Below are positions 18,748 through 57,413 of a stretch of DNA of 64,000 nucleotides, piece by piece. Positions within the stretch are counted from its first letter, which is position 1, and each line of letters starts with the position of its first letter. Source of the DNA: an uncultured delta proteobacterium. Lineage in GTDB: Bacteria > Desulfobacterota > Desulfobacteria > Desulfobacterales > SpSt-501. The stretch is from positions 64,539 to 128,538 of the forward strand of contig CAWHEZ010000004.1 of the NCBI GenBank assembly GCA_963828345.1. The letters run 5' to 3'. The notes beneath the pieces are model-generated. The model made no database searches. It was given only the letters and a program-made list of their open reading frames with translations, and was not told the origin of the DNA. A program made the position numbers and the translations under genes.

Positions 18748-21332
18748 GCGGGCTCCGCCTCGAAGCGGTAGTTGCCCTGCATGAACTGCTCGACGTACCA
18801 GTCCACCTGGCGATCGTCGGACAGGTTCATGTCCAGCAGACGCACCGTCCCGAGCAGCCGCCCCAGGAGGTCGAGCTTCTCCACGAGCGCCGATTCCTCG
18901 TATTTCTTGATCTCGCCGCGCACCATGTCGCCCTTCAGCTCGACCTTGAAGTCCAGCTGCTTGAGGATCTGCGCGATCATGAGCGCCCGCCGCGAGCGGC
19001 GCCCGATGTCGGCCGCGCCGCCCTTGAAGTAGAAGGTGATGTAGTTGTCGTTCACCGCCTGCCCGCAGAAGCTGTCGATGGTCGTGAAGTGGTAGCCCAG
19101 CCGCGAGTTGAAGTTGAGGTAGTGCCCGGCGATGACCGCGTAGCTCGGCGCGCCCATGCGCCCCTCGGCCACCGGGTCGCGGATCGCGCTCTGGGCCACG
19201 ATCGAGGCGAACCCGCCCCAGCTGACCCCCGCGGTGCGCGACCAGTCCACCCGTTCGTGCTTCATCCCGTTCAAGAGCGCGCGGAACGGGATGGAGGTCA
19301 CGTCCTCCAGCTCGGCCTGGCGGCCGGCCCAGCCCTGGCGCAGCCCGTTGCCCAGGTCCACCACGAGGACCTTCATGGGCAGGTAGACCCGCAGCGGGAC
19401 GGCGATGCAGTCGTCGGGGGAGACCTGATCGGTGATCCGGAACATCTCCCGCATGGACATCTCGTGGGCGAAACGGATGATGTCGTGCAGGGTCTTGCAG
19501 CCGGAGGGTGCGAAGCTCTCCTTCTGCGGGTCGGTCAGGTTCAGGGGCGCGATGCGCTTGAGGACCGATTTGACGAGGTTGTAGGTGGGGCTGTTCTTCA
19601 TCGGGTTGACGGGCGGTTTCTCCTTGAGGAGCGCGTCCACCCGGCCGCGGTAGACGACGCCCCGGGTCGCGTCGACGGTGATCTCGTCGCCGTGGCCGAT
19701 CGCCGCGGTCCCGTTGCCGGTCCCCACGAGGGTCGGGATGCGGAACTCGCGCGCGACCGAGGCCATGTGGCCCGTGACGCTGCCCACGTCGGTGATGAAG
19801 GCGCGAATGCGGCCCATGAGCGGTACGTAGCGCGGCGAGGTCTGGCGGGCGACCACCACGACCCCCTCCGGGATGTGGTGCAGCATGTGGTCGGACTCGA
19901 TGACATAGGCGGTGCCCGCAGCCGTCCCGTCGCAGGCCGTCTGGCCGCCCCGCAGCAGGACCGGGTTGGCGACCTCCGCGGCGTCCCCGGGGGCGGAGGC
20001 CGCTTCTTCGGGTTCCCGGCTGGGGCGCTGGGAGCGCTTCAGCGGCCGGGCCTGCAGGATGTAGAGCCGGCCGTTCGCGTCGATCGCCCACTCGATGTCG
20101 AGGGCGTACCCGTAGTGGCGCTCGAGCTTCAGGCCGTACTCGGCCAGCAGTCGCAGCTCGACGGCGGACAGGCAGGCCGTCTGCTGCATCTCCGGCGGCA
20201 GCGACTCTTCGCTCACGCCGTCCGCGGCGTCCACCTTCAGACGCCGCTTCTTTTCGGCCACCGTTTGGCTTTCGAGCGCGAGGGTGCGCTTGTCCACCTG
20301 GAAGAAGTCGGTGGCCACCGACCCCTCGACGGCATCGGCCGCCAGGCCCCAGACCGCGCTGATCATGATCACCGAGTGGCGGCTGTCGTTGGGGTCCACG
20401 GTGTACATCACGCCGCTGACCTTGGCCGGGATCATGACGATGACGGCGACGCTCATGTTCACGTCCTGGTCGCGGTACCCGCGCCGGCGGCGGTAGTAGA
20501 TCGCCCGGGGGCTGAAGGTGCTCGCCACCACTTCCTTGTACGCCTCGACCAGGTTGGCCTCGCTCACGTTGAGCACGGTCGAGTGCTGGCCGGCGAAGCT
20601 CGCCTCGGAGTCCTCGCTCGTCGCGCTGCTGCGCACCGCGAGCTTGAGGTCCGCCGCGACCGTCTCGCGCAGCTCGCGGGCGGCCTGCAGGATGGAGCTC
20701 TCGAGGTCGGCGGGCAGGTCGGCGTCCATGATGCGGTTCTGGATCTCCTGGCTCACGGCCATGAGCGCGTCGGTGTCGTTGATGTCGAGCGGTTTGAGCT
20801 TACGCGCGATGAGATCGGAGAGATCGTTGTAGTCGAGAAAGAGCTGGTACCCGTAGGCCGTGATGGCGAAGCCGGGCGGCACGGGCAGGTTGGCGCGGTT
20901 GCAGACCTCGCCGAGGTTCGCGGCCTTCCCGCCCACTTCGGACGCGTTTTCCAGGCTCAGGCGCTCGATGGGCAGCACGAAGCTGGTGTCCTCGAAGTGG
21001 CGCTCGTGGAGCAGCTCCGAGAAGATCTTGCCGGAAATTCGCTGCGTGGCCTCCGCCAGCTCCGCATACCGCTCGCCGGACAGGGCGTTGAGCTCCTTGA
21101 CCAGGGTGTTCACCTCGACGGACAGGGCTTCCGTCTGCGAGACGGCCCACATGTAGGTGAACGGCTTGTCCTGGTAGATCGTGTGCTCCAGGTCGGCGAT
21201 GATCTCGAGCGCCCGGTTGTTCGCCAGCAGGAGTCCTTTGAAGCTGGCGTACTTGCGGTGAAAGACGGAGGTCTCGGGCAGCCCGCACTCGGCGGACCGG
21301 TCCCTGCGGAACCAATCGAAGAATTTGAACAT
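18744..21332 (-). CDS. PEP-utilising enzyme family protein (PpsA-like ATP-grasp plus phosphohistidine swivel domain, non-canonical N- and C-terminal regions)
   Basis: Start at MFKFFDWF (ATG 21332). GGKAANLGE and SSATSEDSEASFAGQHSTVLNV (PPDK_N type). Swivel-domain His in GSVTGHMASVAREFRIPTLVG. The C-terminal ~330 aa lack the usual PEP-binding TIM-barrel motifs. Confidence 0.8.
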   Translation of the reverse strand: MFKFFDWFRRDRSAECGLPETSVFHRKYASFKGLLLANNRALEIIADLEHTIYQDKPFTYMWAVSQTEALSVEVNTLVKELNALSGERYAELAEATQRISGKIFSELLHERHFEDTSFVLPIERLSLENASEVGGKAANLGEVCNRANLPVPPGFAITAYGYQLFLDYNDLSDLIARKLKPLDINDTDALMAVSQEIQNRIMDADLPADLESSILQAARELRETVAADLKLAVRSSATSEDSEASFAGQHSTVLNVSEANLVEAYKEVVASTFSPRAIYYRRRRGYRDQDVNMSVAVIVMIPAKVSGVMYTVDPNDSRHSVIMISAVWGLAADAVEGSVATDFFQVDKRTLALESQTVAEKKRRLKVDAADGVSEESLPPEMQQTACLSAVELRLLAEYGLKLERHYGYALDIEWAIDANGRLYILQARPLKRSQRPSREPEEAASAPGDAAEVANPVLLRGGQTACDGTAAGTAYVIESDHMLHHIPEGVVVVARQTSPRYVPLMGRIRAFITDVGSVTGHMASVAREFRIPTLVGTGNGTAAIGHGDEITVDATRGVVYRGRVDALLKEKPPVNPMKNSPTYNLVKSVLKRIAPLNLTDPQKESFAPSGCKTLHDIIRFAHEMSMREMFRITDQVSPDDCIAVPLRVYLPMKVLVVDLGNGLRQGWAGRQAELEDVTSIPFRALLNGMKHERVDWSRTAGVSWGGFASIVAQSAIRDPVAEGRMGAPSYAVIAGHYLNFNSRLGYHFTTIDSFCGQAVNDNYITFYFKGGAADIGRRSRRALMIAQILKQLDFKVELKGDMVRGEIKKYEESALVEKLDLLGRLLGTVRLLDMNLSDDRQVDWYVEQFMQGNYRFEAEPA

Positions 21333-21497
21333 CGGTGTACCCCCCCGATCCTGCTGGTGTGCCCCCCCGTTGGGGCCACGCCGATCATACCCGTTTTCGC
21401 CGCGACTACAAGAGGGTTTGCAGCACCCGTGCAGGCTTGTCAAAGCGCGGGCGAGCCGCTATGATGCGCCGCAACTTCACGGCAGGAGGACGGCACA

Positions 21498-23366
21498 ATG
21501 ACCGGCGGCTACATGGGGAAAATCGCGTTCGTGGACCTGACGCAGGGGGCCGTGCGCACGGAGGAGCTGTCGGACGAGGTCGCTCGCGGGTTCATCGGCG
21601 GTTACGGGATCGGGGCGCGGGTGCTCTTCGAGCGCATCCCCAGGGGCGCGGACCCACTGGGGCCCGAGAACGTGCTCGGGTTCGCGGCCGGCCCGCTGAC
21701 CGGAACCCGGGCGCCCACCGGCGGCCGCTACATGGCGTGCTGCAAGTCCCCGCTCACCGGGGGCTGGGGGGACGCCAACTCCGGGGGCTACTTCGGCAGC
21801 GAGCTCAAGGCGGCCGGCTTCGACGCGATCTTCGTCTCAGGCGCCGCGGCGGCCCCGTGCTACCTGCGGGTCGCCGACGGGCGGATCGAAATCCGGGACG
21901 CCGCCCGCTTCTGGGGCCTGGACACGATCGCCGCGGAAGAGGCCCTCCAGCGCGAGCTGAACGACCCCAAACTCCGGGTAGCGGCGATCGGGCCCGCCTC
22001 CGAGCGCCTGTCCCTGATCTCCGGGATCGTCAACGATCGCGGGCGGGTGGCCGCGCGCTCGGGCGTGGGCGCGGTCATGGGGTCCAAGCGCCTCAAGGCC
22101 GTGGCCGTGCGCGGCACGGCCGCGGTCCCGGTGGCCGACCCGGACGCCCTCGGCCGGCTTTCCAAAGACTTTGCCCGCGCGCTGCGCGAGCTCCCGGGCA
22201 TGGCGCAGGTGCTGATGAAGCACGGCACGTGCGGGTTCACCGGCGCGCTGGTGGCCGGGGGGGCAACGCCCCTGAAGAACTGGCAGCTCGCGGGCGAGCA
22301 GGCCTTCCCCGCGGTGAAACGGGTGACGGACGGGGATGCCTTCGTCCGCTTCCAGACGCGCAAGTACGGTTGCGCCTCCTGCCCGATCAGCTGCGGCGGC
22401 ATCTGCGACGTGTCCACCGGCAAGTACCCCGTGGGCGAGGTCCACAAGCCCGAGTACGAGACGATCGGGGCGTTCGGACCGCTCTGCATGTGCGACGACA
22501 TCGAAGTGATCATCAAGCTGCACGACCTCTGCAACCGCAGCGGCCTGGACACCATCTCCGCCGGCCACGTCCTCGCCTTCGCCATGGAGTGCTTCGAAAA
22601 GGGGATCCTGACCGAGGGCGACACCGACGGCATCCGCATCGGCTGGGGCGACGGGGCGGCCATGGTCGCCCTGCTCGAGAAGGTGATCCGGCGCGAGGGG
22701 ATCGGCGACGTCCTCGCCGACGGGGTCAAGGCGGCCGCGGCAAAGATCGGCCGCGGCGCGGAGGCCTGCGCCATGCACGTCGGGGGACAGGAGCCCGGGC
22801 TGCACAGCGCGCTCTTCCTGCCGAGCCGCGGCACCGGGTTCGTGTGCGACCCGACGCCGGGACGCCACACGGCCGCGCCGATGGCGCGGATAGAGGGCGG
22901 GCCGGGGGCCTACGCGCCCTACCCCGAGCTGAAGATCGGCGCCTTCGAACGCCACGCCTACACCGGCAAGGGCCCGATGAGCGCCACGGCCTCCTGCTAC
23001 CTGCAGATCGGCAACTGCGCCGGGGTGTGCGTCATGCCGTTCATGTTCTTCGGGAACTACCCGCTCGTCGACCTGCTCAAGGCCGTCACCGGCTGGGACC
23101 TCGACGTGGCGGAGGCCCTGCACACCGGGGCCCGCATCCAGGCGCTGCGCCAGAGCTTCAACCTGCGCGAGGGGGTCACGGCCGGCCAGGTGCGCCTGCC
23201 CGACCGCATGACGGGCCGCCCGCCTCAGGCGCAGGGGCCGCTCGCCGGCGTGACCGTCGACGTGGACAACCTCGCCCGCGAGTTCCGCGCGGCCATGGGC
23301 TGGGATGCAGAGACCGGCGTACCGACCGCGGATACGTTGAAAGACTTGGGATTGACGATTTCGTAA
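21498..23366 (+). CDS. aor: aldehyde:ferredoxin oxidoreductase (tungstopterin AOR family)
   Basis: 622 aa. N-terminal MGKIAFVDLTQGAV...GGYGIGARVL, and an internal AOR-type C-x-x-C region (KYGCASCPISCGG). Confidence 0.9.
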   Translation: MTGGYMGKIAFVDLTQGAVRTEELSDEVARGFIGGYGIGARVLFERIPRGADPLGPENVLGFAAGPLTGTRAPTGGRYMACCKSPLTGGWGDANSGGYFGSELKAAGFDAIFVSGAAAAPCYLRVADGRIEIRDAARFWGLDTIAAEEALQRELNDPKLRVAAIGPASERLSLISGIVNDRGRVAARSGVGAVMGSKRLKAVAVRGTAAVPVADPDALGRLSKDFARALRELPGMAQVLMKHGTCGFTGALVAGGATPLKNWQLAGEQAFPAVKRVTDGDAFVRFQTRKYGCASCPISCGGICDVSTGKYPVGEVHKPEYETIGAFGPLCMCDDIEVIIKLHDLCNRSGLDTISAGHVLAFAMECFEKGILTEGDTDGIRIGWGDGAAMVALLEKVIRREGIGDVLADGVKAAAAKIGRGAEACAMHVGGQEPGLHSALFLPSRGTGFVCDPTPGRHTAAPMARIEGGPGAYAPYPELKIGAFERHAYTGKGPMSATASCYLQIGNCAGVCVMPFMFFGNYPLVDLLKAVTGWDLDVAEALHTGARIQALRQSFNLREGVTAGQVRLPDRMTGRPPQAQGPLAGVTVDVDNLAREFRAAMGWDAETGVPTADTLKDLGLTIS

Positions 23367-37273: not shown

Positions 37274-37470
37274 TAAATCGGCCCCCTTTCAGTTTTTGAA
37301 TGGAAATTGGGAAGTGGAAATAAGCTTTAATAAGAGTCACGCGAACTGTCAATACCAATCCGCGTCTAGTAATCGCAAAATACGGGAGAGCGGCCCAGGT
37401 TCTGCCGCCCTCCCCGTATACCATTGCTCAGCTGGGCTTTAGACCCTGGAGACCGACGCCGTTCGCACGC

Positions 37471-39026
37471 TCACGCCAGCCCCACCAGCGGGAGCAGGAT
37501 CCACAGCCCGGCCCAGATCACCAGCCCCCCCAGGATGTCGAAGAAGATGCCGGCGCGGATCATCTTGGTGATCGGGATCATGCCCGACCCGTAGACGATC
37601 GCGTTGGGCGGGGTGGAGACCGGCAGCATGAATCCCCAGCTCGCACCCAGAGTGGCGCCGATCGCCGGCGGGATGGGGTTGACCCCGGCCGCCTGCGCCA
37701 GCGAGATCATGACGGGGATGACCATGTTGGCGGAGGCCGTGTTCGAGGAGGTCTCGCTCACCAGGATGGCGATGAAGATCGCCCCGAAGGTGATGCCCCA
37801 CATGGAGGTCGCCCCGCTCATCTCGAGCAGATTCTTGCCGATCACCTCGGCGAGCTTGGACTCGAACATGAGGTTGCCGAGCGTGAGGCCGCCGCCGAAG
37901 AGCAGGAGCGTCCCCCAGTCGATCTTGGTGGCCTGGCTCCAGGTCACGGTGAACTGGCGTTCCTTCCAGTTCACCGGCATCAGGAAGAGCAGCATCGCGC
38001 CGATCAGGGCGGCCACGCCTTCGGGCATGAACTTGCCGTAGCTTCTTGGAGATCGGGGCGTCGGTGCCGTAGAACACCGCCAGGAAGCCCGGGATGAGCC
38101 AGAGTACGACGGTGATCCCGAATGCGATGCACGCGTTCTTCTGGGCCCGGGTCCATTTCCCGAGCTGGGCGCGCTCGCGCGCGACGTACTCGGCGCTGCC
38201 CTCGATGTTCGAGAGCTCGGGCTTGTGCAGGAAGTACATCAGCACGAACAGCAGGCCGAAGAGCAGGATCAGCAGCGGGATCGCGAAGACCATCCACTGG
38301 AAGAAGGCGATTTTCACGCCGCAGAACTTCTCGATCATGGCGATGCCGATCAGGTTGGGGGGCGTGCCGACGGGGGTCCCGATGCCGCCGGCCGAGGCGG
38401 CGTAGGCCGCCATGAGCATCATGCCGGTGCCGAAGCGCAGCTTGGTCGGGTCGACGCTCTTGCCCGTCTGCCGGCCCATGATGTCGCCCATGGCGTAGAC
38501 GATGCCCGAGGCCGATCGGGAACATCATGGCCGTCGCGGCCGTGTTGCTGATCCACATCGACAGGAAGGCGCAGATGACGCCGAAGGCCAGCAGGATGCG
38601 GCCGGTGCTGTTGCCGACCGACTTCATGGACATGATGCCGTAGGCGAAGCGCTTGTCCAGGCCGTGGATGGCCATGACTTCGGCCAGCACGAAGCTGCCG
38701 AAGAAGAGCCAGATGATCGGGTCGGCGAACGGCGCGAAGACCTTGCGCACGTCGGCCACCCCGCAGAGCACGCACAGCATCGCGCCCAGCATGGCGGACA
38801 TGGGCAGGGGCACCGGCTCGGTGACCCACCAGATGCCGACCCAGCTGATAATGGCGGCCAGGATGTGGGCATTGGGCGTCAGGCTCGGCATGGGCGTGAG
38901 ATAGACCAGGAGGGCCACCAGGGGGCCTAATCCCAGCCCGATCGTGTTGCGCCAGCGTTCGAACTTCTCCTCCTGTTCGGAGAGGGTGGCCTCGATTGTG
39001 GGGGGGGTCTGGATCGTTTCCGCCAT
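37471..39026 (-). pseudogene. DASS-family (SLC13-like) anion:sodium symporter, two frameshifts
   Basis: Three consecutive membrane-protein ORFs in different frames join seamlessly. The first junction is ...NTAATAMMFPIGLG | IVYAMGDIMGRQTGKS (about 38505). The second is ...FYGTDAPISKK | YGKFMPEGVAALIGAMLLF (about 38042). Confidence 0.8.
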
Positions 39027-41107: not shown

Positions 41108-42559
41108 CTACCTCGGCTCGGGCCACTGCCGCACGACCCGGTTTTCGGAATCCAGCAGGGTGATCTGCACACCGTGATCGCCGTCCAGGCGATGCGTGGC
41201 GCAGCTGATTCAGGGATCGTAGGCGCGCACCGCCATTTCGATCCGGTTGAGGATCCCCTCCGTCACCGGCTCGCCCTGGATCAGCATGCGGGCAGCCTGC
41301 TTCACGCTCAGGTTCATGGGGCCCAGGTTGTGGGTGGTCCCGACGATCAGGTTGGCGCGCGTAATCAGCCCGTTTTCGTCCGTCGAGTAGTCGTGGATCA
41401 GCGTCCCGCGCGGGGCTTCCACGCACCCGACGCCGCGGCCGGCGCGCGGCTCGACCTTGGCGCGCACGTTCGGGTCGGTGATCGCGGGGTCCTCCAGGAT
41501 CTCGATCGCGCGCTCGCAGGCGTAGACCTCCTCGATCAGCCGGGCGTAGTGGTAGAGCAGGGTCGCCTGCGCCGGCCGCCCGAAGAGGGAGCGGAACTCC
41601 TCGAGCTCGGCCTGCGCGCGCGGGGTGGCCATGCGGTCGGCCACGTTGATGCGGGCCAGCGTGTTGGCGCGGTAGATGCCCTTGGGGTGGTCCACGTCGA
41701 GCGCGAACCCCTCGTTCCAGCAGCGCGCGTAGGGGAACTTCCCGTAGGAGTTGGGCTCGACGTGCTCGCCCAGGTAGTCCGCGTAGTCCTGGGGGTCGAA
41801 GTCGATGAAGGTCCCGTCGGGCTTCATCAGCCGGATCCGGCCGTCGTAGAGGTTGTGGGCGCCGTCGGCGTCCACCGTCCCGATGAAGCCGGTCGTGATC
41901 ACCCCCAGGGTCCGGATCGCGTCCATGTACTTCGGGAAGACGTTCTGCTTGGCGAAGTCGATCGTGAAGAGCGCGAAGTCGAGCACCTGGCGCATCTTGG
42001 CCAGGATGTCCACGCGATCCTCCTCGAGCATGGGCTTGGAGAAGCCGCCCGGGACGCCCGCGATCGGGTGGATGGTTTTGCGCGAGAACTTGTCCAGGAT
42101 CATCTTGACCATGTACCGCATCTTGACGACCTGGGTCGCCAGCTCCGGGTTGGCCTTGGCGATTCCGACCACGTTGCGCACCGCGTAGTCGGCGTCCGGG
42201 CCGATGACGAAATCCGGGGCCGCGAGGAAGTAGAAGTGCAGCAGCTTGTCCTCGGCGTGGGCGATGGTCTGCATCAGCTCGCGCAGCCGGTGGCCGGTCG
42301 GGGTCGGCGTCACCCCGAAGCAGCGGTCCACGGCCTTGTTGGAGGCCAGGTGGTGCATCCAGGGGCAGATGCCGCAGATGCGGCAGACGATGTCCGGCAG
42401 CTCCTCGGCCGGCTTGCCTTCGACGAACTTCTCGAACCCCCGCAGGGACATGTAGTTCACGCGGGCATCCGTGTAGCGGCCCGCCTCGTCCAGCCAGATC
42501 TTGATGGACGCATGGCCCTCGATGCGGGTGATCGGTTGAATGGTGATGGGCGAGGTCAT
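41108..42559 (-). CDS. mvhA: [NiFeSe] hydrogenase large subunit (Mvh/Vhu-type, group 3c-like) with in-frame UGA selenocysteine
   Basis: N-terminal Ni-ligand motif RICGICP. The C-terminal motif reads RAYDP-TGA-ISCATH, that is DP[U]xxCxxH, with the TGA at 41210-41212. The frame stays open for 33 more codons to the TAG at 41108-41110, consistent with a protease-cleaved tail. Confidence 0.85.
41177..41193 (-). promoter_or_regulatory. candidate SECIS hairpin for the mvhA UGA
   Basis: 16 nt after the UGA: AUCGCC-UGGAC-GGCGAU (6-bp stem, G-containing pentaloop). Confidence 0.6.
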
Positions 42560-42560
42560 G

Positions 42561-43501
42561 TCAACTCGATCTCCTTTCGTGAGGTATCGGTTTGAGCAGG
42601 GAGTGCGCCCCGGAGAAGCGCAGCAGCAGCGGCCGGTTGGGGATGGACCGGACGTCGATGCCGTTGGAGGCGAGCGCGTTCACCATGTCCAGCAGCTGGT
42701 TGCCGTCCGGGCGCACCGGCCCGGAGCAGCCCCGGCAGGGCACCCGGGCCGAGATGCAGCGCGGGGTCACCCCGTCGCCCCCGCAGCCGGCGCGCGTGAC
42801 GGGCCCCATGCACAGGAACCCCTGCTCCAGCAGGCAGCGCATCCGGTCGAGCGGCTCGCCCGGTTCGTGGTAGAAGGGCGCCTGCAGGAAGCGCCGCACC
42901 TGCTTGACCTCGCCCTTGCCCTTGCGCACGGTCGGGCAGGTGTCGCACACACTGTGCGACGGCACCTTGAGCGGGGTGCCCTGCACGAGGGCGACCAGCG
43001 CGCTGAAGATGTGGTCCGGGTGGGGCGGGCAGCCGGGCAGATGGATGTCCACCTTGATCTTCTCGTCCACGGCGTAGCAGGCATCCAGCAGCTCGGGGAT
43101 GTCCTCGGACGGGTAGGCATCGGGCCGGTCGGTGGTCTCGGTGGAGAAGGCCCGCTCCAGGATCTCGCCGTGGTGAACGAGTTGGCCAGCGCCGGGATCC
43201 CGCCGTGGGTCGCGCAGGTCCCGAGCGCGATGATGATCTTGCACTTCTTGCGCATCTCGTGCGCGACCTCGAGGTGCTCCGAGTTGCGGATCCCGCCGCT
43301 GATGAGGCCGACGTCGGCTTCCGGCAGATCCATGTGCGCCTTCTCCCCGGTCTGGCCGTAGTATTTGCTGTCCACCAGCGCGGGGAGGTGGACGATGTCC
43401 GCCACCTGGAGCACGTCCAGCAGGCGCTCGCCCATGTCGAGAATCGAGATCTCGCACCCCGAGCACGAATTCAACCACTCGCTTGATACGCGGACACCCA
43501 T
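42561..43501 (-). pseudogene. mvhG: [NiFe] hydrogenase small subunit (MvhG-like), one frameshift
   Basis: MGVRVSSEWLNSCSGCEISILD...ALGTCATHGGIPALANS is in the frame of ORF 42767..43501. VHHGEILERAFS...HLPGCPPHPDHIF...PCRGCSGP follows in the frame of ORF 42561..43478. One nt is missing around 43180. The stop is 1 nt before the mvhA ATG. Confidence 0.85.
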
Positions 43502-43529
43502 GGGTCGGTCCTCCGGGAGATTTCGGACG

Positions 43530-43610
43530 TTTTAGTGTTGGTGTTCAGTGTTTAGGTGTTTAGGTGTTTGGGTCGTGCTTCGAAACACGTAACACCGCAA
43601 CACTTAAAAC
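43530..43610. repeat. GTGTTT(A/G)G tandem-repeat hairpin element
   Basis: The left arm AGTGTTGGTGTTCAGTGTTTAGGTGTTTAGGTGTTTGGG pairs with the right arm CGAAACACGTAACACCGCAACACT. It lies in the spacer between the hdrCB-like gene and mvhG. Confidence 0.6.
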
Positions 43611-43623
43611 TCTTGTTCCCCAG

Positions 43624-44919
43624 CTACAGTCCTACTTCGGCCAGCTCCGGGCCGAGGTAGGCGCGTTCGTTTTCGCCCAGGCAGCCCATGGCGAGGCAGA
43701 TCAGCGTCCAGAGGTGCACCGTGTGCCAGCCGCCCTTGAAGTGCTCGCTCAGGTCGTGGATCTGCGAGTGGCAGTTGTGGCACGGGGCGATGCAGTACGG
43801 CGCGCCGGTCGCCAGGATCTGGTCGGTCTTGATCTTGCCGAAGGCGCGCCGGCCTTCGGCGTAGCCGGCCTGGAGCGCGCCGCCGCCGCCGCCGCAGCAG
43901 TAGTTGTTCGAGCGGTTGGGCGTCATGTCGACGAAGTTCTCCTCGCCGACCACCCGCTTGACGACGTAGCGCAGGTCCTCGGCGTAGGCGTCGCCGAAGG
44001 TCTTGCGCACCTGGTTGCAGGGGTCCTGCACCGTGAACTTGACCCGGAGGTCCTTGTTCCAGTCCGCGGACACCCGCAGCCGGCCCTCGCGCAGCCACTG
44101 CGCGTAGAGCTGGACGATGGTGGTGATCTCGAAGGAATGAGGGATGTTGTACTTTTGCAGTCCGGCCCGGACTGCGAAGAGCTCGTGCCCTCACTCCGTG
44201 TTGACCCAGTATTTACAGCCCAGGTCGTCGACGGCCTTGGCCTTGATGCGCACGATGCGTTCCCAGCTCTCGTCGTCGGCCAGGAACATGCAGTAGTTCT
44301 CGGCGGCCCAGCCCTTGGTGCCGTAGGTCCAGTCGGCGCCGACCGCGTGCAGGATCTTCCAGAGCGGCACCATCTCGTCGGGCTCGGTCACCGGCTCGCG
44401 CGAGTTCTGGTTCACGAAATACGTCGCCCCCCGCTTGTCCAGAGGCGCCTGGAGGGTCTCCCAGCCGGGCTGGTTGGCGCGCACCTCCTCGAGGACGTCC
44501 TCCACCACGAAGCGGAAGTCCTCCTCCGAGGCGCCCATGGCGCTGCAGCTCTCGTGCTTGAGCGCCATGTCGCAGGAGCCGCGGATGCCCTTGGGCCGCT
44601 CCTCGCGCGGCCAGCTCTTGCGCGCGTGGTAGACCAGCTGCGGGATGTCGATCTTCATCGGGCAGACGTAGATGCAGCGCCAGCAGAGCGTGCAGTTCCA
44701 CACCCACTCGGTCTTGAGGATCTGCTCGTCCAGGCCCATGCTGGCCATGCGCAGGAACTTGCGCGGGTCCATCCCGGCGATCCCGGTGGCCGGACAGCCC
44801 GAGGCGCAGGCGCCGCACGTCAGGCAGGCGTTCAGGTTCCCGCCCTCGGGCAGCAGCTGCATGACCCGGTCTTTGAAGATGCTTTTGCGTTCCTTCGGGA
44901 GCACGATCGGTTCGGTCAT
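43624..44919 (-). CDS. fused HdrC/HdrB-like (HdrD/GlpC-type) Fe-S oxidoreductase with in-frame UGA selenocysteine
   Basis: Two ferredoxin motifs, CLTCGACASGCP and CTLCWRCIYVCP. CCG-domain motif NYCCGGGGG and APCHNCHSQ. The TGA at 44191-44193 sits in WVNTE-TGA-GHELF, where homologues carry ECGH. ORFs 44191..44919 and 43624..44073 are in the same frame. Confidence 0.8.
44157..44175 (-). promoter_or_regulatory. candidate SECIS hairpin for the hdrCB-like UGA
   Basis: 15 nt after the UGA: GCAGUCC-GGGCC-GGACUGC (7-8 bp stem). Confidence 0.6.
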
Positions 44920-44922
44920 GGC

Positions 44923-45378
44923 TCACCTCGCTGCGGCCGACGCCGGGGCCGCCACGGCGGCCTTGCGACGCGGGATGGGGTTCGGGCCGATGCCGCGGAT
45001 CTTTTCGGTGAAGCAGGTCACCACCTCCGCGAAGCGCGGCGCTTCGGCGGACGACACCCACTCGACGCCGTACCGTTCGGGGTCGACCCCCTGGGTTTCG
45101 AGGACCATGCGGACGGCTTCGCTGCGGGCCAGGGCTTTGTGATTACCATCCAGGTAATGACATTCGCCCAGGTGTCAGCCCATCAGGATGACGCCGTCGG
45201 CCCCGCGGCGGAAGGCCTCGACCACCAGCTCCGGGTGCACCATGCCGGAGCACATCACGCGCACCGCGCGCATGTTGGGCGGGTACTGCAGGCGCGAGAC
45301 CCCCGCCAGGTCGCCCCCGGCGTACGCGCACCAGTTGCAGAGGAACCCCAGGATCACCGGTTCGAATTTCTCGCTCAT
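44923..45378 (-). CDS. mvhD: methyl-viologen-reducing hydrogenase delta subunit (MvhD) with in-frame UGA selenocysteine
   Basis: MSEKFEPVILGFLCNWCAYAGGD...GADGVILMG-TGA-HLGECHYLDGNHKA. The family motif is GCHxGxCHY. The TGA lies at 45175-45177. ORF 44923..45108 is in the same frame. Confidence 0.85.
45142..45158 (-). promoter_or_regulatory. candidate SECIS hairpin for the mvhD UGA
   Basis: 16 nt after the UGA: AUUACC-UGGAU-GGUAAU (6-bp stem, pentaloop nearly identical to the mvhA one). Confidence 0.6.
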
Positions 45379-45485
45379 TTTCCTCTCCTTTTCAGCAGCT
45401 CCTTCGGGTTGGAAGCTGTTCGATTATGCGAAAGGATCCGGAAGTCGTTGCCCAATGTCCAGTTCTCAAGGCGGGCGAGCGCCAC

Positions 45486-45518
45486 GCGGCGAGGCGTACT
45501 GGCAATACGCCGCAACGA
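45486..45518. repeat. dispersed hairpin repeat, copy 2 (GCGAGGCGTACT..ATACGCCGCA)
   Basis: CGCGGCGAGGCGTACTGGCAATACGCCGCAACG in the hdrA-mvhD spacer, with a partial third copy GCCGCGAGGCGTCGGCG at about 45531-45548. Related to 23495-23529. Confidence 0.5.
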
Positions 45519-45551
45519 CGTTTCCTAACGCCGCGAGGCGTCGGCGAAACA

Positions 45552-48500
45552 TCAGGCGACGTCCTCGAGGGCGGCGGCCACCTGCGCCTTCAGCTGCTCC
45601 TGCGTGAAGCCGTGGACGAAGACGCCGCCCTTCGGGCAGGTGGCCGCGCACAGGCCGCACCCCTTGCAGAGCGCCGCGTCGGTGCGGATGCGCCGGTGGG
45701 AGCGACCGTCCTCGCCCGGGTAGTCCTCCAGCGCGATGGCGCGGTAGGGGCAGACGTCCAGGCACAGCGCGCACCCGTCGCAGCTCTCCGTGACGCAGGA
45801 CTTGATGGCGTCGAGCGTCATCTCCGTCTGCGCGAGGATGCTCCCGGCCCGCACGGCGGCCGCCTTGGCCTGGGCGATCGTCTCGTCCATGGGCTTGGGG
45901 TAGTTGCAGAGGCCGGCGACGAACAGCCCGTCCACGGACATGTCCACCGGCCGCAGCTTCGGATGGGCCTCGTTGAGGAAGCCGTCGGCGTTGGCGGCGC
46001 ACTTGAAGAGCTCGACCAGGCCACGGCTTTCGCGCGGCTCGACCGCGGCGGCGAGCACGAGGTAATCCGCCGCAATGGCGAGCGGCAGCTGCAGGATGGG
46101 GTCGAAGACGTCGATCCGCAGGTCGCCGCCCTCGCGCCGGACGAGCGGCTTGCGCTCGAGCTCGTACCGGATGAAGATCACCCCCAGGTCGCGCGCCTTG
46201 CGGTAGAGACCTTCGCGCTCGCCGTAGGTGCGGATGTCGCGGTAGAGCACGTAGACGTTCATCTGCGGGTTGAGGCCCTTCAGCGCCGCGGCCGCCTTCA
46301 CGGCGTGCGTGCAGCAGATCCGGCTGCAGTAGGGGCGGTGCTCGTCGCGCGAGCCGACGCACTGGATGAAGGCCACACTCTGGGCGCGCTTCAGGGCGGC
46401 CGGGTCCTCGCGCAGCAGCCCGTCGAGCTCCAGGTGGGTCAGGACCCGGGGGTCCTCCCCGTAGAGGTACTCGGTCGGCTGAGACTCCTGGCCGCCGATG
46501 GCGAGCACGGCCGCCCCGTAGGCGACCTCGCGCTCCTGGCCGTCGACCTTGACCCGGCTGACGAAGCTGCCCACCGAGCCGGCGGTCGAGGCCAGCTCGG
46601 CCTTCTTGAGCACCTCGATGCGCGGGTGCCGCTCCACGGTCGCGATGAGGGATTCCAGGTGCGGCCGCACGGCCTCGCCCTGGTCGGTCGTGTTGATCCG
46701 CCAGGCGTTGCCGCCGAGCTGGGCGGACTGCTCCAGGAGGGTGGTCTGGAAGCCCTGCTCCGCCAGGCCCAGCGCGGAGTGCATGCCGGCCACCCCGCCG
46801 CCGATCACGAGCGCCTTGGGGATCACGTTGACCCGGCCGCTCGCGATCGGAGTGCTCAGCGCGGCCTTGGCGACCGCCATGCGCACCTGGTCCTTGGCCT
46901 TGGCGGTCGCCCGTTCCGGTTCGCGCTGGTGCACCCACGAGTTCTGATTGCGGATGTTGGCCATCTCGACCAGGTAGGGGTTGAGCGAGGACTCGCGCAG
47001 CGTGTCCTGGAAGAGCGGCTCGTGCGTGCGCGGCGTGCAGGCGGCGATGACGACGCGGTTCAGGCGGTGCTCGGAGATCTTCTTGCCCATGAGCTCCTGG
47101 GTGTCGGCCGAGCAGCTGAAGAGGTTGTTCTCCGCGAGCACGACCCCCGGCAGCGTGCGGGCGTACTTCACGACCTCGTCCACGTTGACGATTCCGGCGA
47201 TGTTGATGCCGCAGGAGCACACGAAGACGCCGATGCGCACCGGTTCGGCGCCTAAACTGCGCTCGGCCGGGTAGCTGCGGGTGCGCGTGAGCTCGCCGCG
47301 GGCGGCGATCAGGGTCGCGGCCGCCTCGCAGGCCGCGGTCGAGGCCTCGGCGACCGAACGCGGGATGGCCTTGGGGGCCTGGAAGGCGCCGGCCACGAAC
47401 ACGCCGGCCCGGTTGGTCGTCACCGGCGCGAAATCCGAGGTGCGCGCGAAACCGTACTCGTCGAGATCGAACTTGAAGACGCGCGCCAGTTCCTGGGCGT
47501 CGCCCGCGGGCTCGAGCCCGACCGACAGCACCGCCAGGTCGAACTCCTCGACCTTGACCTCTCCCTCGTCGGTGCTGTAGCGCATCGACACGCCGTGGTT
47601 GCCGGCCCCGGCCTCGATCGAGTGCGGACGGGCGCGGACGAAGCGCACGCCCTTGTCCTTGGCCCCCTCGTAGAAGCGGTCGAAGTCCTTGCCGTGGCTG
47701 CGGATGTCCATGAAGAAGATGGCCTGCTCCAGCCCGCCGCCGGAGGTGTGCTCCGCGGTCACGAGCGCCTCCTTGATCGCGTACATGCAGCAGACGCTCG
47801 AGCAGTAGCCGTTCTTGCACTGGTTGGTGTTGCGCGAGCCCACGCACTGGATCCAGGCGATGCGCCGCGGCTCCGTGCGGTCGGAGGGCCGCACCAGGTG
47901 CCCCATGCAGGGGCCGCTCGACGAGAGCAGCCGCTCGTACTCGAGGCTGGTGACCACGTCCGGGATGCGCTTGTAGCCGTAGAAATCGAACCCGGAGGGG
48001 TCGAAGGGCTTGAAGCCCGGGGCGAGGATCACCGCGCCGACGTTGAGCGTGGCCACCTCTTCCTTGTCCTCGAAGTTGATGGCCGAGGTGGGGCAGAACT
48101 TCTCGCAGGCCTTGCACTTGCCGCGGGTCAGGTAGATGCAGGTCTGGCCGTCGATCGCGTACTTCAGGGGCACGGACTGGCCGTACTTGATGTAGGCCGC
48201 TGTGCGGTCGTTCAGGCCCAGGTTGAACTCGTCACGGACCTTGCGGGGGCATTTCTGGGCGCAGAGGCCGCAGGCAATGCACTTGTCCATGTCGATGTAG
48301 CGGGGTTTCTTCTTGATCGTGACGGTGAAATTTCCGACGTCACCGGAGACGTCGACCACTTCGGACAGGGTGAGCAACTCCACATTCAGATGCCGGCCGA
48401 CCTCGACCAGTTTGGGTGAGATGATTCACATCGCGCAGTCGTTGGTCGGAAAGGTCTTGTCCAGCTGGGCCATCACGCCGCCGATCCCGGCGCTTTTCTC

Positions 48501-48605
48501 CACCAGATGGACGAAGTAACCCGAGTTGGCGAGGTCGAGGGTCGCCTGCATGCCGGCGATGCCTCCGCCAACCACCAATACGGAACCGATGGGTTTGCCT
48601 GACAT
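45552..48605 (-). CDS. hdrA: large HdrA-like flavoprotein with two tandem HdrA modules and in-frame UGA selenocysteine
   Basis: ATG 48605 with an AGAGGTG RBS. MSGKPIGSVLVVGGGIAGMQATLDLA...DKTFPTNDCAM-TGA-IISPKLVEVGRHLNVELL, with the TGA at 48426-48428. A second FAD module starts at KALVIGGGVAGMHSALGLA. Several CxxCxxCxxxCP ferredoxin motifs. 1,017 aa if read through. Confidence 0.85.
48393..48410 (-). promoter_or_regulatory. candidate SECIS hairpin for the hdrA UGA
   Basis: 15 nt after the UGA: CUGGUC-GAGGUC-GGCCGG (6-bp stem including two G-U pairs, loop containing GGUC). Confidence 0.55.
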
Positions 48606-48872
48606 AGTCACCTCTTTGGCCGTGGAATGAAGGGGGGGGGTGATGCGCGCATCACCCGGGAGGGGAACCGAGTTGGAAAGGACGATCTCCTGCATGACGG
48701 CGACCGGGATGAGTTGCTCGCGGCAGAACTCCGCGAACGCATCCTGCGCGATCATGTATTTCTTCCCGACGGTGGCGCTCGCCCGCAGCTTGCCGCTGCG
48801 GATCCAGTTGGTGACGGTGTTGCGGTGAACGCCGAGCTTTTCGGCGAGCTGTCCGACGCGGATTTCGATCAT
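48606..48872 (-). CDS. excisionase/MerR-like helix-turn-helix DNA-binding protein; in this assembly it has no stop codon and runs in frame into hdrA
   Basis: ATG 48872 with a GGAGG RBS, overlapping the protease stop (ATGA). MIEIRVGQLAEKLGVHRNTVTNWIRSGKLRA is a classic HTH. No stop occurs before the hdrA ATG at 48605. Removing one G from the G9 run (48632-48640) would create a TGA 2 nt before that ATG. Confidence 0.6.
48638..48657. promoter_or_regulatory. 20-bp perfect palindrome upstream of the hdrA start (candidate operator or RNA stem)
   Basis: GGGTGATGCGCGCATCACCC equals its own reverse complement. It lies 33-52 nt upstream of the hdrA ATG and overlaps the end of the G9 run. Confidence 0.6.
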
Positions 48873-49381
48873 GATTCCTCCGATGCATTTGGCGTGGGTC
48901 CGATGGCCGCCAGGATCCGGGCGCACATGGCCGGAATGGCCCGCTGCATGGGCTCGGACAGCCCGGGCCTCACCTCGGACGGCATGCCGGCCACCTGGGC
49001 GACGAACACGTTGATGTCGACCCGCGTTTCGTCCCGGATCTCCTTGAGCAGGTTGATGCCGGGGAACTGGTGCAGCGCGAAGTCGCAGCGCTTCTCGGGC
49101 CGGATCTGGTCGATGTCGATCTCGCAGATTTCCCCGGGGGTCATCGCACGGGAGTCGGTGACGTCGACGATGATGACCTGCCGCGGCTTGCGCGGTGAGA
49201 GGATGATGTCGAAGAGGATGTCGCGGATGGATGTGCCGCAGTCGATGAGGGCCACGGAGTCCGGCAAGGAGTGGTGCTCTTCGAGATGATGAATGACCGC
49301 CGGTCCGAACCCGTCATCTCCGATGAGGAGATTGCCGCAACCCAGAACGAGGCAATCGTATTCGGCGACCGGCTTGAGCAT
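48869..49381 (-). CDS. hydrogenase maturation endopeptidase (HycI/FrhD/HoxM family)
   Basis: LVLGCGNLLIGDDGFGPAV...LIDCGT and ALHQFPG motifs. Preferred start is ATG 49381 (MLKPVAEY); the track ORF uses TTG 49390. Confidence 0.8.
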   Translation of the reverse strand: MLKPVAEYDCLVLGCGNLLIGDDGFGPAVIHHLEEHHSLPDSVALIDCGTSIRDILFDIILSPRKPRQVIIVDVTDSRAMTPGEICEIDIDQIRPEKRCDFALHQFPGINLLKEIRDETRVDINVFVAQVAGMPSEVRPGLSEPMQRAIPAMCARILAAIGPTPNASEES

Positions 49382-49388
49382 GTTGTGC

Positions 49389-49418
49389 AAATTAGGCCAA
49401 AATCAAAAGCGCTGTCAA
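49389..49418 (-). promoter_or_regulatory. candidate sigma70-type promoter of the Hdr/Mvh operon (possibly leaderless)
   Basis: On the minus strand: TTGACA (49418-49413), 18-nt spacer, TAATTT (49394-49389). The ATG at 49381 lies 7 nt downstream and no Shine-Dalgarno is visible. Confidence 0.3.
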
Positions 49419-49753
49419 GCAGAATTTATGCGATCTGTGCAAAGCCCGGCCTCCGCTTTGTTTTATTGCTCAGCACTTTAGAAAAGCAAAAGTACACAGC
49501 CCGGCTATGATAAGTAGCTAAACAAATTGATATTATTTTTAATTTTTTATTATGAACCTCGTTTATTTTCAGAGTATATGTAAAAGTACTTCGAATCGAT
49601 CGTCAATGTTCGCATGCATTCAATTAAGGAAGGGGTGGGGATTGCATGGGATGAGCGCCGCGCAACACCGGCTCAATTTTAAGGCTCACCCCCGGCGCGC
49701 CGCCCCCCGACTCGCGGCTCGAGCCCTTGCCGGATAGCCGGTCATGCGGCCGA

Positions 49754-52334: not shown

Positions 52335-52460
52335 CAGGGTTCAGGGTGTCGGGGTTCAGAAAAGAGGGCGCAAGGGTTCGGGGTTCAGGGGTCAGCCAAA
52401 AGAACAACGTCGATGCGGGGTCTTGATCTTCCTGAACCCTGATCGCTGAACCCTCTTTTC
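52335..52460. repeat. GGTTCAGGG-type repeat hairpin element
   Basis: The left arm GGGTTCAGGGTGTCGGGGTTCAGAAAAGAGGGCGCAAGGGTTCGGGGTTCAGGGG faces the inverted right arm CCTGAACCCTGATCGCTGAACCCTCTTTTC. Confidence 0.6.
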
Positions 52461-52504
52461 GGTGACGTCATTTCACCGCCACCGGGCCATCCGGACCTGT
52501 TTTA

Positions 52505-52605
52505 GCCTCCCAGCCTCCCAGCCTCAAGCGTTTTTCCCTGCCGGCCCAAACACCCGACACCTAAACCCCCATCCCCCAAACACCAAACACAAAACACCAA
52601 ACACC
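52505..52605. repeat. tandem simple repeats: (CCTCCCAG)n followed by (CAAACAC)n
   Basis: GCCTCCCAGCCTCCCAGCCTC at 52505-52525. CCCAAACACCAAACACAAAACACCAAACACC at 52575-52605 is the reverse complement of the GGTGTTT repeats at 57420-57450. Confidence 0.6.
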
Positions 52606-52714
52606 GGCCCCCCACCCTCTTGCTTTTCAGTGTCAACTTCATTTAGCAAGAACGCTCCATTGGCCCGACACCCCGCCCTGCCCATCTCCGGCGGTCGACC
52701 CCAAAGGAGGAGAC

Positions 52715-55930
<3,216 letters not shown>

Positions 55931-56009
55931 CAAAAGGGCAAGGAGATAATTTCGACCGGCAACGGCGCTTCAGGCCATCACAACCGTCACATCCAATTAA
56001 GGAGCCCCC

Positions 56010-57413
56010 ATGGGCGGAATGTTCGGCATCGCATCCAAGGAAAACTGCGCCGCAGACCTCTTCTACGGCACCGACTACCACTCGCATCTCGGCACCCGCT
56101 ACGGCGGAATGGCCGTGCGCAACCGCACCGGGTTCGAGCGCGCGATCCACACCATCGAGAACAGCTATTTCCGCACCAAGTTCGAATCCGAGCTGCCCAA
56201 GTTCCAGGGCGGCACCGGCATCGGGGTCATCAGCGACACCGACCCGCAGCCCATCTTCATCCGCTCCCACCTCGGCACGTTCGGGGTCGTGACGGTGGGC
56301 AAGATCACGAACATCGACCCGCTGGTGCGGGAGGCCTTCGAGCGGCGCCGCTATTTTTCGGACGTGAACGGCGACAGCATCAACCCCACGGAGCTCGTGG
56401 GGGCGCTCGTCAGCGAGGCGCCCACCTTCGAGGAGGGCATCCGCCGGGCCCAGGAGGTCATTCAAGGGTCCTGCACCCTGCTGCTGCTCTCCGAGACCGG
56501 GCTCTACGCGGCGCGCGACCGCCTCGGCCGCACCCCGCTCGCGATCGGCCGCCGCGAGGGCGCCTTCGCGGTCAGCTCCGAGACCTGCGCCTTCCCGAAC
56601 CTCGGCTTCGAGATCGAACGCTTCGTCGGCCCGGGTGAGATCGTGCGCGTCACCCCCGAGGGGTGCGAAACCCGCGTGCCGGCCGGGCCGCGCATGCAGA
56701 TCTGCTCCTTCCTGTGGGTCTACTACGGCTACCCCGCCTCCGAGTACGAGGGCATCAACGTGGAGCAGGTGCGCAACACCTGCGGCGCGGCGCTGGCCGC
56801 CCGCGACGACGTCGAGATCGACTACGTGGCCGGCATCCCGGACTCGGGCATCGGCCACGCGATCGGGTACGCCACGGCGCGCGGCCTGCCCTACCGGCGG
56901 CCCTTCGTGAAGTACACGCCGACCTGGCCGCGCAGCTTCATGCCCCAGAACCAGCAGATGCGGGACCTCGTGGCGCGCATGAAGCTGATCCCCGTGCGGC
57001 CGCTGATCCGCGACAAGCGGCTGCTCTTCTGCGAGGATTCGATCGTGCGCGGCACCCAGCTGAAGGACACGATCCGGTTCCTCTTCGACTGCGGCGCCCG
57101 CGAGGTCCACATGCGGCCGGCCTGCCCGGTGTTGATCCACCCCTGCGAGTTCATCAACTTCTCGAGCTCGCGCTCGACCCTCGACCTGGCCGGGCGCAAG
57201 GCCATCCAGGACCTGGAGGGCGCGGACGGCGTCCACCTGGAGGAGTACGCCGCGGCCGGGTCGGCCAGGAACACGGCGATGATCGAGGGCATCCGCAGCC
57301 GGCTGCGGCTGACCACCCTGAAGTACCAGCGCCTGGAGGACCTCGTGGCGGCTATCGGGCTGCCCAAGGACAAGCTGTGCACGCACTGCTGGGACGGAAC
57401 TTCCTATTTCTAA
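56010..57413 (+). CDS. amidophosphoribosyltransferase (PurF)-like protein lacking the N-terminal nucleophile Cys
   Basis: 467 aa. Class-II GATase-like N-domain plus a PRTase domain (LLFCEDSIVRGTQ). The position after the initiator reads MFGIAS instead of MCGI. Confidence 0.8.
   Translation: MGGMFGIASKENCAADLFYGTDYHSHLGTRYGGMAVRNRTGFERAIHTIENSYFRTKFESELPKFQGGTGIGVISDTDPQPIFIRSHLGTFGVVTVGKITNIDPLVREAFERRRYFSDVNGDSINPTELVGALVSEAPTFEEGIRRAQEVIQGSCTLLLLSETGLYAARDRLGRTPLAIGRREGAFAVSSETCAFPNLGFEIERFVGPGEIVRVTPEGCETRVPAGPRMQICSFLWVYYGYPASEYEGINVEQVRNTCGAALAARDDVEIDYVAGIPDSGIGHAIGYATARGLPYRRPFVKYTPTWPRSFMPQNQQMRDLVARMKLIPVRPLIRDKRLLFCEDSIVRGTQLKDTIRFLFDCGAREVHMRPACPVLIHPCEFINFSSSRSTLDLAGRKAIQDLEGADGVHLEEYAAAGSARNTAMIEGIRSRLRLTTLKYQRLEDLVAAIGLPKDKLCTHCWDGTSYF

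Follow-up and report, generated by a model that had tools for sequence, protein, structure and literature searches.

A glpC-hdrA-frhD-frhG-frhA operon with four selenoprotein genes has been known in sulfate-reducing and syntrophic bacteria since 2006, when it was reported for Syntrophobacter fumaroxidans and Desulfotalea psychrophila together with a fused hdrA-hdrA gene (Zhang et al. 2006, PMC1794560). The part of a 2026 review that treats this 'four-selenoprotein-gene operon' gives its motifs as U-G-H in an Fe-S oxidoreductase-like protein, CxxU in HdrA and UxxC in MvhA, where U is selenocysteine (Sec) (PMC13188914). We have analysed a 64-kb stretch of DNA from an uncultured, high-GC Desulfobacterales relative (contig CAWHEZ010000004.1 of assembly GCA_963828345.1; hereafter the window), and find on its minus strand a set of genes that very probably forms one operon for a Mvh/Vhu-type [NiFeSe] hydrogenase, a HdrA flavoprotein and a HdrD/BamD-like subunit, with four UGA codons decoded as Sec. 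An earlier note on this DNA had thought four Sec residues in one operon unusual; that judgement does not survive, the operon type having been published in 2006 (PMC1794560) and seven complete relatives carrying all four TGAs. The locus is a correct annotation catch of an established operon type, and for its biology the window adds a further member and little more. There is a lesson for annotation: standard gene callers cut four genes to stubs, the first of which is misnamed an excisionase in thousands of entries. The by-products may outweigh the main finding: a natural experiment in the exchange of TGA and Cys, the fusion of a helix-turn-helix (HTH) domain to HdrA and a conserved repeat in the promoter, and the loss of an FrhB-like gene.

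In the passages of the two papers that concern the operon, the likeness to the window is close. The same five families occur, with Sec in GlpC, HdrA, FrhD/MvhD and FrhA/MvhA and none in the small subunit, and the HdrCB-like, HdrA and MvhA sites of the window carry the listed motifs UGH, CxxU and UxxC. By the published description the gene order differs, being hdrA-mvhD-glpC-mvhG-mvhA here with a protease gene in front, and those passages make no mention of the HTH_17 domain that is fused to HdrA in the window. The closest characterised module is BamDEF of the class II benzoyl-CoA reductase of Geobacter metallireducens (bioRxiv 10.64898/2026.04.10.717634). By description it consists of a fused HdrA dimer (BamE), a MvhD-like adaptor (BamF) and a subunit resembling a fusion of HdrB and HdrC (BamD), the distal non-cubane cluster of which is often degraded; selenocysteine and HdrA-type bifurcation are likewise present. 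The Bam system differs in its input, which is NADH and ferredoxin via BamGHI and not H2 via MvhAG, and in its output, a tungsten enzyme. A comparable cluster occurs in a Desulfobacterales sulfate reducer, Desulfobacterium autotrophicum HRM2, where the genes for a cytoplasmic Sec-containing Mvh hydrogenase are clustered with that for a Sec-containing HdrA (mvhA2DG-hdrA1) and where paralogues of MvhD and HdrD that contain Sec are found as well as the full selABCD set (PMC2702500); by description its gene complement differs and it adjoins HysAB. In methanogens, the Hdr-Vhu system of Methanococcus maripaludis (VhuA/U, VhuG, VhuD, HdrA; PMC13518236) and the MvhADG-HdrABC complex of Methanothermococcus (5odc) likewise link a group 3c-type hydrogenase via MvhD/VhuD to a HdrA that contains flavin adenine dinucleotide (FAD), and the former shares Sec at the Ni ligand and at the HdrA residue equivalent to 197. 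The window differs from the methanogens in several respects: its putative Sec insertion sequence (SECIS) elements are of the bacterial kind and lie inside the coding sequence, whereas the archaeal element lies in the 3' untranslated region; its HdrA reads as a permuted fused dimer; one HdrD-like protein replaces HdrB and HdrC; and no coenzyme M/coenzyme B metabolism is expected.

Analysis of open reading frames (ORFs) and codon usage shows closely packed frames with a strong third-position GC bias between 49381 and 41108; all features of the operon given below are on the minus strand. The earlier note had counted seven co-directional genes here. Its strand, packing and coordinates hold, including the ATGA overlap at 48872-48869, the mvhD stop at 44925-44923 against the ATG at 44919 and the mvhG stop at 42563-42561 against the ATG at 42559, but the count does not: the HTH ORF runs into hdrA without a stop, which leaves six reading frames. 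Pfam and NCBIfam matches confirm the identity proposed for the operon, that of a Hdr/Mvh [NiFeSe] hydrogenase, and in products translated with the TGAs read through they cross every TGA uninterrupted.

The first gene (48869..49381, with an alternative TTG start at 49390) encodes a maturation endopeptidase of the HycI/FrhD type (PF01750, 64 bits; TIGR00072, 114 bits and over its cutoff). It is followed by a single frame of 1106 codons (45552..48872) that encodes an HTH_17 domain (PF12728, aa 6-52), a linker and a tandem HdrA, which is matched by HdrA2/HdrA models in three stretches. The NCBIfam HdrA2 score is 949.8 bits against a cutoff of 1100 (it is not the archaeal HdrA2). Against 5odc_A, the Methanothermococcus HdrA, the HdrA part aligns with E=3.7e-172 in three stretches of permuted order (residues 171-508, 3-180 and 512-653 of 5odc_A in turn), so that each part of HdrA is matched once; a further FAD-type match in the HTH-HdrA protein, at aa 686-799, is consistent with a duplication, that is, a fused dimer. 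The architecture expected of HdrA is present: an FAD domain like that of thioredoxin reductase, into which a ferredoxin domain is inserted, and cluster domains of the N- and C-terminal kinds. MvhD, the [2Fe-2S] adaptor subunit (44923..45378), matches PF02662 (FlpD) across its TGA at aa 9-131 with 169 bits against a cutoff of 22.3. The next gene (43624..44919) encodes a protein of 431 residues in which Pfam domains define a HdrC-like di-cluster ferredoxin (Fer4_8 and Fer4_17, aa 29-91) fused to a CCG domain (aa 296-387). We call it HdrCB-like; it is of the GlpC/HdrD/BamD-like 'Fe-S oxidoreductase' selenoprotein type, its top NCBIfam matches are HmcF, TmcB and DsrK, all under cutoff, and its profile finds HdrC in the PDB with E=2.6e-16 and HdrB, reached through the C-terminal CCG domain alone, with E=1.2e-5. 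MvhG, the hydrogenase small subunit (42561..43501), scores 113 bits with PF01058 and 230 bits with VhuG once its frame is repaired (see below). MvhA, the [NiFeSe] large subunit (41108..42559), scores 117.8 bits with PF00374 against a cutoff of 25.8; VhuA is its best-scoring NCBIfam family (459 bits, with an equivalog cutoff of 800), and VhuU matches the piece downstream of the TGA (aa 434-461). Both metal-binding motifs of MvhA are present, RICGICPWMHH near the N-terminus and DP-U-ISC-ATH near the C-terminus, and the 27-residue C-terminal extension after the His fits removal by a dedicated protease, for which the product of the first gene is the predicted candidate.

A script and direct reading of the sequence locate four in-frame TGAs at the positions and in the peptide contexts quoted in the earlier note: TNDCAM-TGA-IISPK in hdrA (48428-48426), ILMG-TGA-HLGECHY in mvhD (45177-45175), WVNTE-TGA-GHELF in the HdrCB-like gene (44193-44191), which gives the U-G-H motif as NTE-U-GHE, and RAYDP-TGA-ISCATH in mvhA (41212-41210), which gives DP-U-ISC-ATH. 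Homologue alignments, 5odc_A and the MvhA metal motif place all four in conserved Cys columns, and in-frame homology resumes directly past each of them, again as had been claimed. The HdrA TGA aligns with Cys197 of 5odc_A (NDC-AM-U against NDC-SI-C), so the residue belongs to a CxxU pair beside the flavin that is equivalent to Cys/Sec197; in M. maripaludis HdrA this is Sec197, paired with a Cys beside the flavin (PMC13518236). The column of the MvhD TGA is part of a GCHxGxCHY motif, is occupied by Cys in 28 related loci and by TGA in 17, and is taken to be a ligand of the [2Fe-2S] cluster. In MvhA the Sec occupies the Ni-ligand position of DPUxxC. At the HdrCB-like site Cys occurs in 20 of 20 full-length homologues of 60-70% identity, within an invariant E-C-G-H, and Sec243 may stand in for the first of the two cysteines in a degenerate CxxC. 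Mapping of this Sec onto a degenerate N-terminal CCG domain was dropped, as Pfam, the PDB profile and hhalign gave nothing: Pfam detected no second CCG domain in the N-terminal half, only a spurious WW match, and hhalign found no internal repeat between the two halves (probability 0.1). The prediction that naive annotation would split these genes is confirmed by a contig of ENA sample ERZ25039489 (L081), which is 95.6% identical to the window over 14 kb and fully syntenic with it; there the genes are called as 148+943, 67+61, 242+149 and 449 aa.

In bacteria a SECIS hairpin brings SelB with Sec-tRNA to the ribosome. The earlier note had described a hairpin 15-16 nt after each TGA with a perfect stem of 6-8 bp and a G-containing loop, and this is what we find. 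In hdrA it is CTGGTCG-AGGT-CGGCCGG (48393..48410; 7 bp, loop AGGU), in mvhD ATTACC-TGGAT-GGTAAT (45142..45158; 6 bp, loop UGGAU), in the HdrCB-like gene GCAGTCCG-GGC-CGGACTGC (44157..44175; 8 bp, loop GGC) and in mvhA ATCGCC-TGGAC-GGCGAT (41177..41193; 6 bp, loop UGGAC), where it overlaps the codons around the protease cleavage site. All four lie within the published bacterial constraints (loop of 3-9 nt, stem of 4-16 bp, G in the first two loop positions, spacing of 16-37 nt and free energy of -7.5 kcal/mol or lower; PMC13188914, Fig. 2 legend). The loops, of 4, 5, 3 and 5 nt in the order given, each have a G within the first two positions and start 22, 22, 23 and 22 nt after the UGA. The free energies of 38-nt segments are -10.4 (hdrA), -7.9 (mvhD), -14.0 (HdrCB-like) and -14.3 kcal/mol (mvhA), of which the mvhD value is near the limit and falls to -19.4 over 50 nt. 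Defined as a stem of at least 6 bp with a G in the loop, starting 14-17 nt downstream of a codon, such hairpins are found after about 4.8% of the in-frame codons in the operon genes (2454 in all). Given this background rate, four out of four is well above chance (about 6e-6, an estimate for which the hairpin offsets were chosen after seeing the data); among the genuine TGA stops of the window, 1 of 12 has such a hairpin.

One further structure has SECIS-like geometry. Within 45554-45500 an 8-bp hairpin, GCGGCGTT-AGGA-AACGTCGT, starts 17 nt downstream of the true hdrA TGA stop. An in-frame TAG follows the stop 9 codons on and conservation of the spacer in L081 is poor; the hairpin is probably an intergenic structure with no recoding role.

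A scan with one genome per species gave 80 loci, mostly from metagenome-assembled genomes (MAGs) of Desulfobacterales, among them a Desulfosudis oleivorans MAG and the isolates Desulfonema magnum, Desulfopila aestuarii and Desulfospira joergensenii. The HdrCB-like site is TGA in 80 of 80 loci; at the HdrA, MvhD and MvhA sites TGA is seen in 32, 17 and 10 distinct sequences respectively, and every one of the seven complete operons (L004, L022, L034, L044, L047, L049 and L053) carries all four. The hairpins are kept at the nucleotide level across genomes of widely differing base composition. In the mvhA stem two pairs show compensatory changes in 10 loci, with 98% of cells paired, a figure that sliding the partner lowers to 17-67%, and in the HdrCB-like stem three pairs do so over 78 distinct sequences, a degree of covariation matched in 0 of 500 shuffles. 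The hdrA hairpin is invariant in sequence, synonymous sites included, in most of the 32 loci (97% of cells paired), as is the mvhD stem in its 17 Sec loci, where the proteins are 50-85% identical. The hairpin accompanies the TGA site by site: it is present in 32/32 TGA loci and 0/2 Cys loci for hdrA and, in what is the best control, in 17/17 TGA loci versus 0/28 Cys loci for mvhD, where the Cys loci encode C-H-Y-x-x-G-N with freely varying codons. Two loci, L084 and L085 (GCA_020720325.1 and GCA_974336885.1), hold an orthologous operon in which the HdrA and MvhD sites are TGT and the HdrCB site is TGC, none of the three with a hairpin, and in which mvhA keeps both TGA and hairpin, with further compensatory changes; the four sites therefore switch between Sec and Cys independently. 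This amounts to a natural experiment performed site by site, in which the hairpin stands always beside TGA and never beside Cys, even inside one operon. Conservation, covariation and this link between TGA and hairpin suggest that the hairpins would act as SECIS elements through SelB binding and Sec insertion.

Two side observations emerged from the relatives. In five loci (L022, L034, L036, L044 and L049) hdrA has an alternative hairpin, TTGAGTGC-GGTCG-GCACTTAA, a few nucleotides farther from the UGA, and this subgroup has a Val-to-Cys change in the peptide (KLVECGRH); apparently the SECIS has been remodelled and Sec kept. A Sec-containing HdrCB-like gene, 71-77% identical to that of the window, also occurs beside a distant tandem HdrA (46-49% identical, with Sec) and a Cys-type MvhD, in L006, L010, L018, L021, L023, L026, L042, L048, L050-L052, L055, L058, L060, L063, L073, L074 and others. 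Being found in both settings, the HdrCB-like selenoprotein is thus a subunit shared by two or three kinds of complex at least. These HdrA/MvhD/HdrCB clusters have no hydrogenase genes nearby; we considered whether they are bam clusters and rejected the idea, no gene of the aldehyde:ferredoxin oxidoreductase type lying within 10 kb.

The sequence of the window itself calls for some care. The earlier note overlooked that mvhG is interrupted at about 43168 by a one-base deletion (GGG to GG), as a result of which the N-terminal 110 residues and the remainder lie in different, overlapping frames; L081 reads CACGACGGGCGAGATCC where the window has CACCACGG-CGAGATCC, and its mvhG is an intact gene of 313 aa. 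Further frameshifts interrupt a DASS transporter gene (37470-39026, at about 38508 and 38130), a LivK-like gene (about 36460) and a LivF-like gene (about 33030), which makes at least five single-base frameshifts within 11 kb in otherwise well-conserved genes. The one at 38508 is an extra C relative to L081, where the transporter gene is intact. L081 has indels of its own, in a gene (56001-57413) that is intact in the window. The intact copy in L081, the run of G and the other frameshifts nearby are the reasons why we consider the break in mvhG most likely an error of (long-read) assembly and not biology, and given such indels the gene calls of the window are to be treated with care. Programmed -1 frameshifting was rejected for mvhG: there is no slippery heptamer, the missing G falls in a GGG run when compared with L081, and similar frameshifts occur nearby.

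Upstream of mvhG a gene is missing. All 12 relatives that cover the position have, between the HdrCB-like gene and mvhG, an FrhB/FdhB-like gene of 370 residues with PF04422, PF04432 and a ferredoxin domain (for example 11331-12449 in L004). It is absent from the window (43502-43623) and from L081, which have a spacer of 110-122 nt instead; in the window this holds 4.4 copies of an 8-nt tandem repeat, TAAACACC (43540-43573). Comparison of the loci suggests that one lineage has lost the FrhB-like subunit.

Three explanations would do without Sec. If the TGAs were ordinary stops, the fragments would be separate small subunits encoded by split genes, and it is true that gene callers output exactly these fragments and that thousands of 148-aa database entries under the name 'excisionase family DNA binding protein' end at the hdrA TGA. 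Yet at each TGA there is a conserved Cys column with homology continuing in frame straight after it, the next ORF could start no earlier than 14 to 39 codons past the TGA, no ORF of at least 40 aa follows the mvhA TGA, the Cys orthologues are single ORFs of 1109, 146 and 433 aa, and the hairpins occur beside TGA and never beside Cys. We consider split genes very improbable. Errors of assembly or pseudogene lesions, like the break in mvhG, come to mind in a window with at least five frameshifts between 32.6 and 43.2 kb, but the errors observed there are single-base indels and not substitutions, and the same four TGAs recur both in L081, an independent contig, and in dozens of further genomes, which leaves this account with almost no probability. 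Genome-wide reassignment of TGA, for example to Trp or Gly, is suggested by nothing beyond the in-frame TGAs themselves. TGA terminates 12 of 18 checked genes of the window where their families predict an end, and the genetic code is therefore standard; the in-frame TGAs, moreover, align with Cys and not with Trp or Gly. We give reassignment equally negligible weight.

A different alternative accepts Sec and holds that the hydrogenase part is decaying in this lineage; the frameshift in mvhG would then be a true mutation, and the FrhB-like gene would have been lost at an earlier step of the same process. The frameshift in the window and the absence from the window and L081 of a gene that 12 of 12 covering relatives possess speak for it. 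L081, however, is without the FrhB-like gene and yet has intact mvhG and mvhA with 99% protein identity to the window; mvhA and mvhG retain strong codon bias (GC content at third positions of 0.93 for mvhA), and the mvhA SECIS is kept. The deletion falls in a G run, unrelated neighbouring genes show the same kind of lesion, and L081 likewise has indels, in a gene that the window has intact; such a pattern agrees with errors of long-read assembly. Decay of the hydrogenase is in our judgement unlikely.

Several observations weigh against our preferred reading, that of an operon for a hydrogenase-Hdr complex with four Sec residues. The 64-kb window contains no tRNA gene, and the 20 ORFs scanned in it outside the operon gave no match to the SelA, SelB or SelD families. 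Rfam gives no relevant match at gathering or permissive thresholds, none of its models catching these hairpins. The NCBIfam equivalog cutoffs for VhuA, VhuG, VhuD and HdrA2, which are tuned to methanogens, are not reached, and the proteins are therefore bacterial relatives of the methanogen proteins and not equivalogs. The frameshift in mvhG, if real, would prevent assembly of the hydrogenase in this strain; there is no FrhB-like subunit, and the wiring of electrons may therefore differ from that in relatives. In the literature we found no biochemical test of function for bacterial members of this exact operon type.

If the Sec-containing hydrogenase-Hdr reading is right, the subunits would form one complex whose function can be proposed by analogy with MvhADG-HdrABC and BamDEF. 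H2 would be oxidised at the Ni-Fe-Se site of MvhA, as a cytoplasmic hydrogenase, and the electrons would probably reach the bifurcating FAD of HdrA by way of MvhG and the MvhD cluster. By the same analogy, this FAD would split them, sending one to ferredoxin and the other through the HdrD-like subunit to an acceptor of higher potential, for which DsrC-type disulfides and electron transfer flavoprotein are candidates from the literature.

The HTH domain at the start of HdrA deserves separate comment, as we found no description of it, or of the promoter repeat discussed below, in the literature searched. The HTH_17 domain (about 48872-48675, with the linker to 48606) starts in the ATGA overlap and is in frame with hdrA; a second ATG lies at 48605, and Shine-Dalgarno-like sequences precede both ATGs. 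The fusion, with an in-frame, stop-free linker of variable length, is seen in 8 of 8 loci, including all seven relatives that possess the HTH, and in the Cys-type operons HTH-HdrA is a single ORF of 1109 or 1121 aa. Databases contain more than 3,400 fragments of about 148 residues that stop at the Sec codon, and many of these are called 'excisionase family DNA binding protein'. An AlphaFold model shows a confident winged helix at residues 1-66 (predicted local distance difference test score of 80-87) and a disordered linker. Its best Foldseek neighbours are Xis of phage Pukovnik (4j2n) and Streptomyces BldC on DNA (6amk, 6ama), with probability of about 1.0 and template modelling scores of about 0.65-0.70, the E-values being weak (about 0.02). 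The modelled fold suggests that the HTH is a winged helix of the Xis/BldC/MerR type.

Xis and BldC bind tandem direct repeats, and the promoter region of the operon (49382..49450) contains repeats, TTGCACAA, that resemble such targets; DNA binding here is putative. Two copies of TTGCACA (49442-49436 and 49390-49384) flank a sigma-70-like pair, TTGACA-N18-TAATTT, assigned by eye as -35 and -10 elements and not listed by a stricter promoter scan. TTGCACA has just these two copies in the window, both within 60 nt upstream of the first gene. In relatives the corresponding position holds 2-4 copies of T(T/G)GCACA(A), for the most part in tandem with a period of 10 nt, or one helical turn; the repeat is seen upstream of the operon in L004, L022, L034, L044, L047, L049, L053, L081 and L084, in inverted form in the last. 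The exact 7-mer is 33-fold enriched within 200 nt upstream of the first gene, and clusters of it are nearly absent from 1 Mb of other loci. We suggest T(T/G)GCACA(A) as a candidate operator. A sigma-54 promoter was rejected for the window, where the GC-to-GC spacing of TTGCACA-N3-YGCATA is 9 nt instead of 11 nt; in three relatives a TTGGCAC-N5-TTG element, correctly spaced for sigma-54, lies farther upstream.

In trigger enzymes of the PutA type a DNA-binding domain is fused to a flavoenzyme, as it is in HdrA here. The fused HTH might bind the TTGCACA(A) repeats and make HdrA a PutA-like trigger enzyme that couples transcription of the operon to redox or assembly state, an idea we hold to be doubtful. 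Because the HTH is encoded ahead of the first Sec codon, it is a possibility that under selenium shortage failed decoding of the UGA frees a 148-residue DNA-binding fragment that would serve as a built-in selenium sensor. In one operon, L044, the repeats are present and the HTH is not, and we therefore regard the pairing of HTH and repeat as no more than a lead.

Elsewhere in the window, about 18 kb from the operon, a gene for a tungsten-type aldehyde:ferredoxin oxidoreductase (21465-23366) adjoins, and is divergent from, a gene like those for phosphoenolpyruvate/pyruvate dikinases (18744-21458); as far as can be told, this pair is unrelated to the operon. The syntenic position in L081 lacks a stretch of 3.6 kb (52359-55966) that in the window holds a carB-like gene for the large subunit of carbamoyl-phosphate synthase (52565-55930); in its place, hrpB and an amidotransferase-like gene stand about 300 nt apart in L081. 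Either the two close relatives differ here by an insertion or deletion, or one of them is misassembled.

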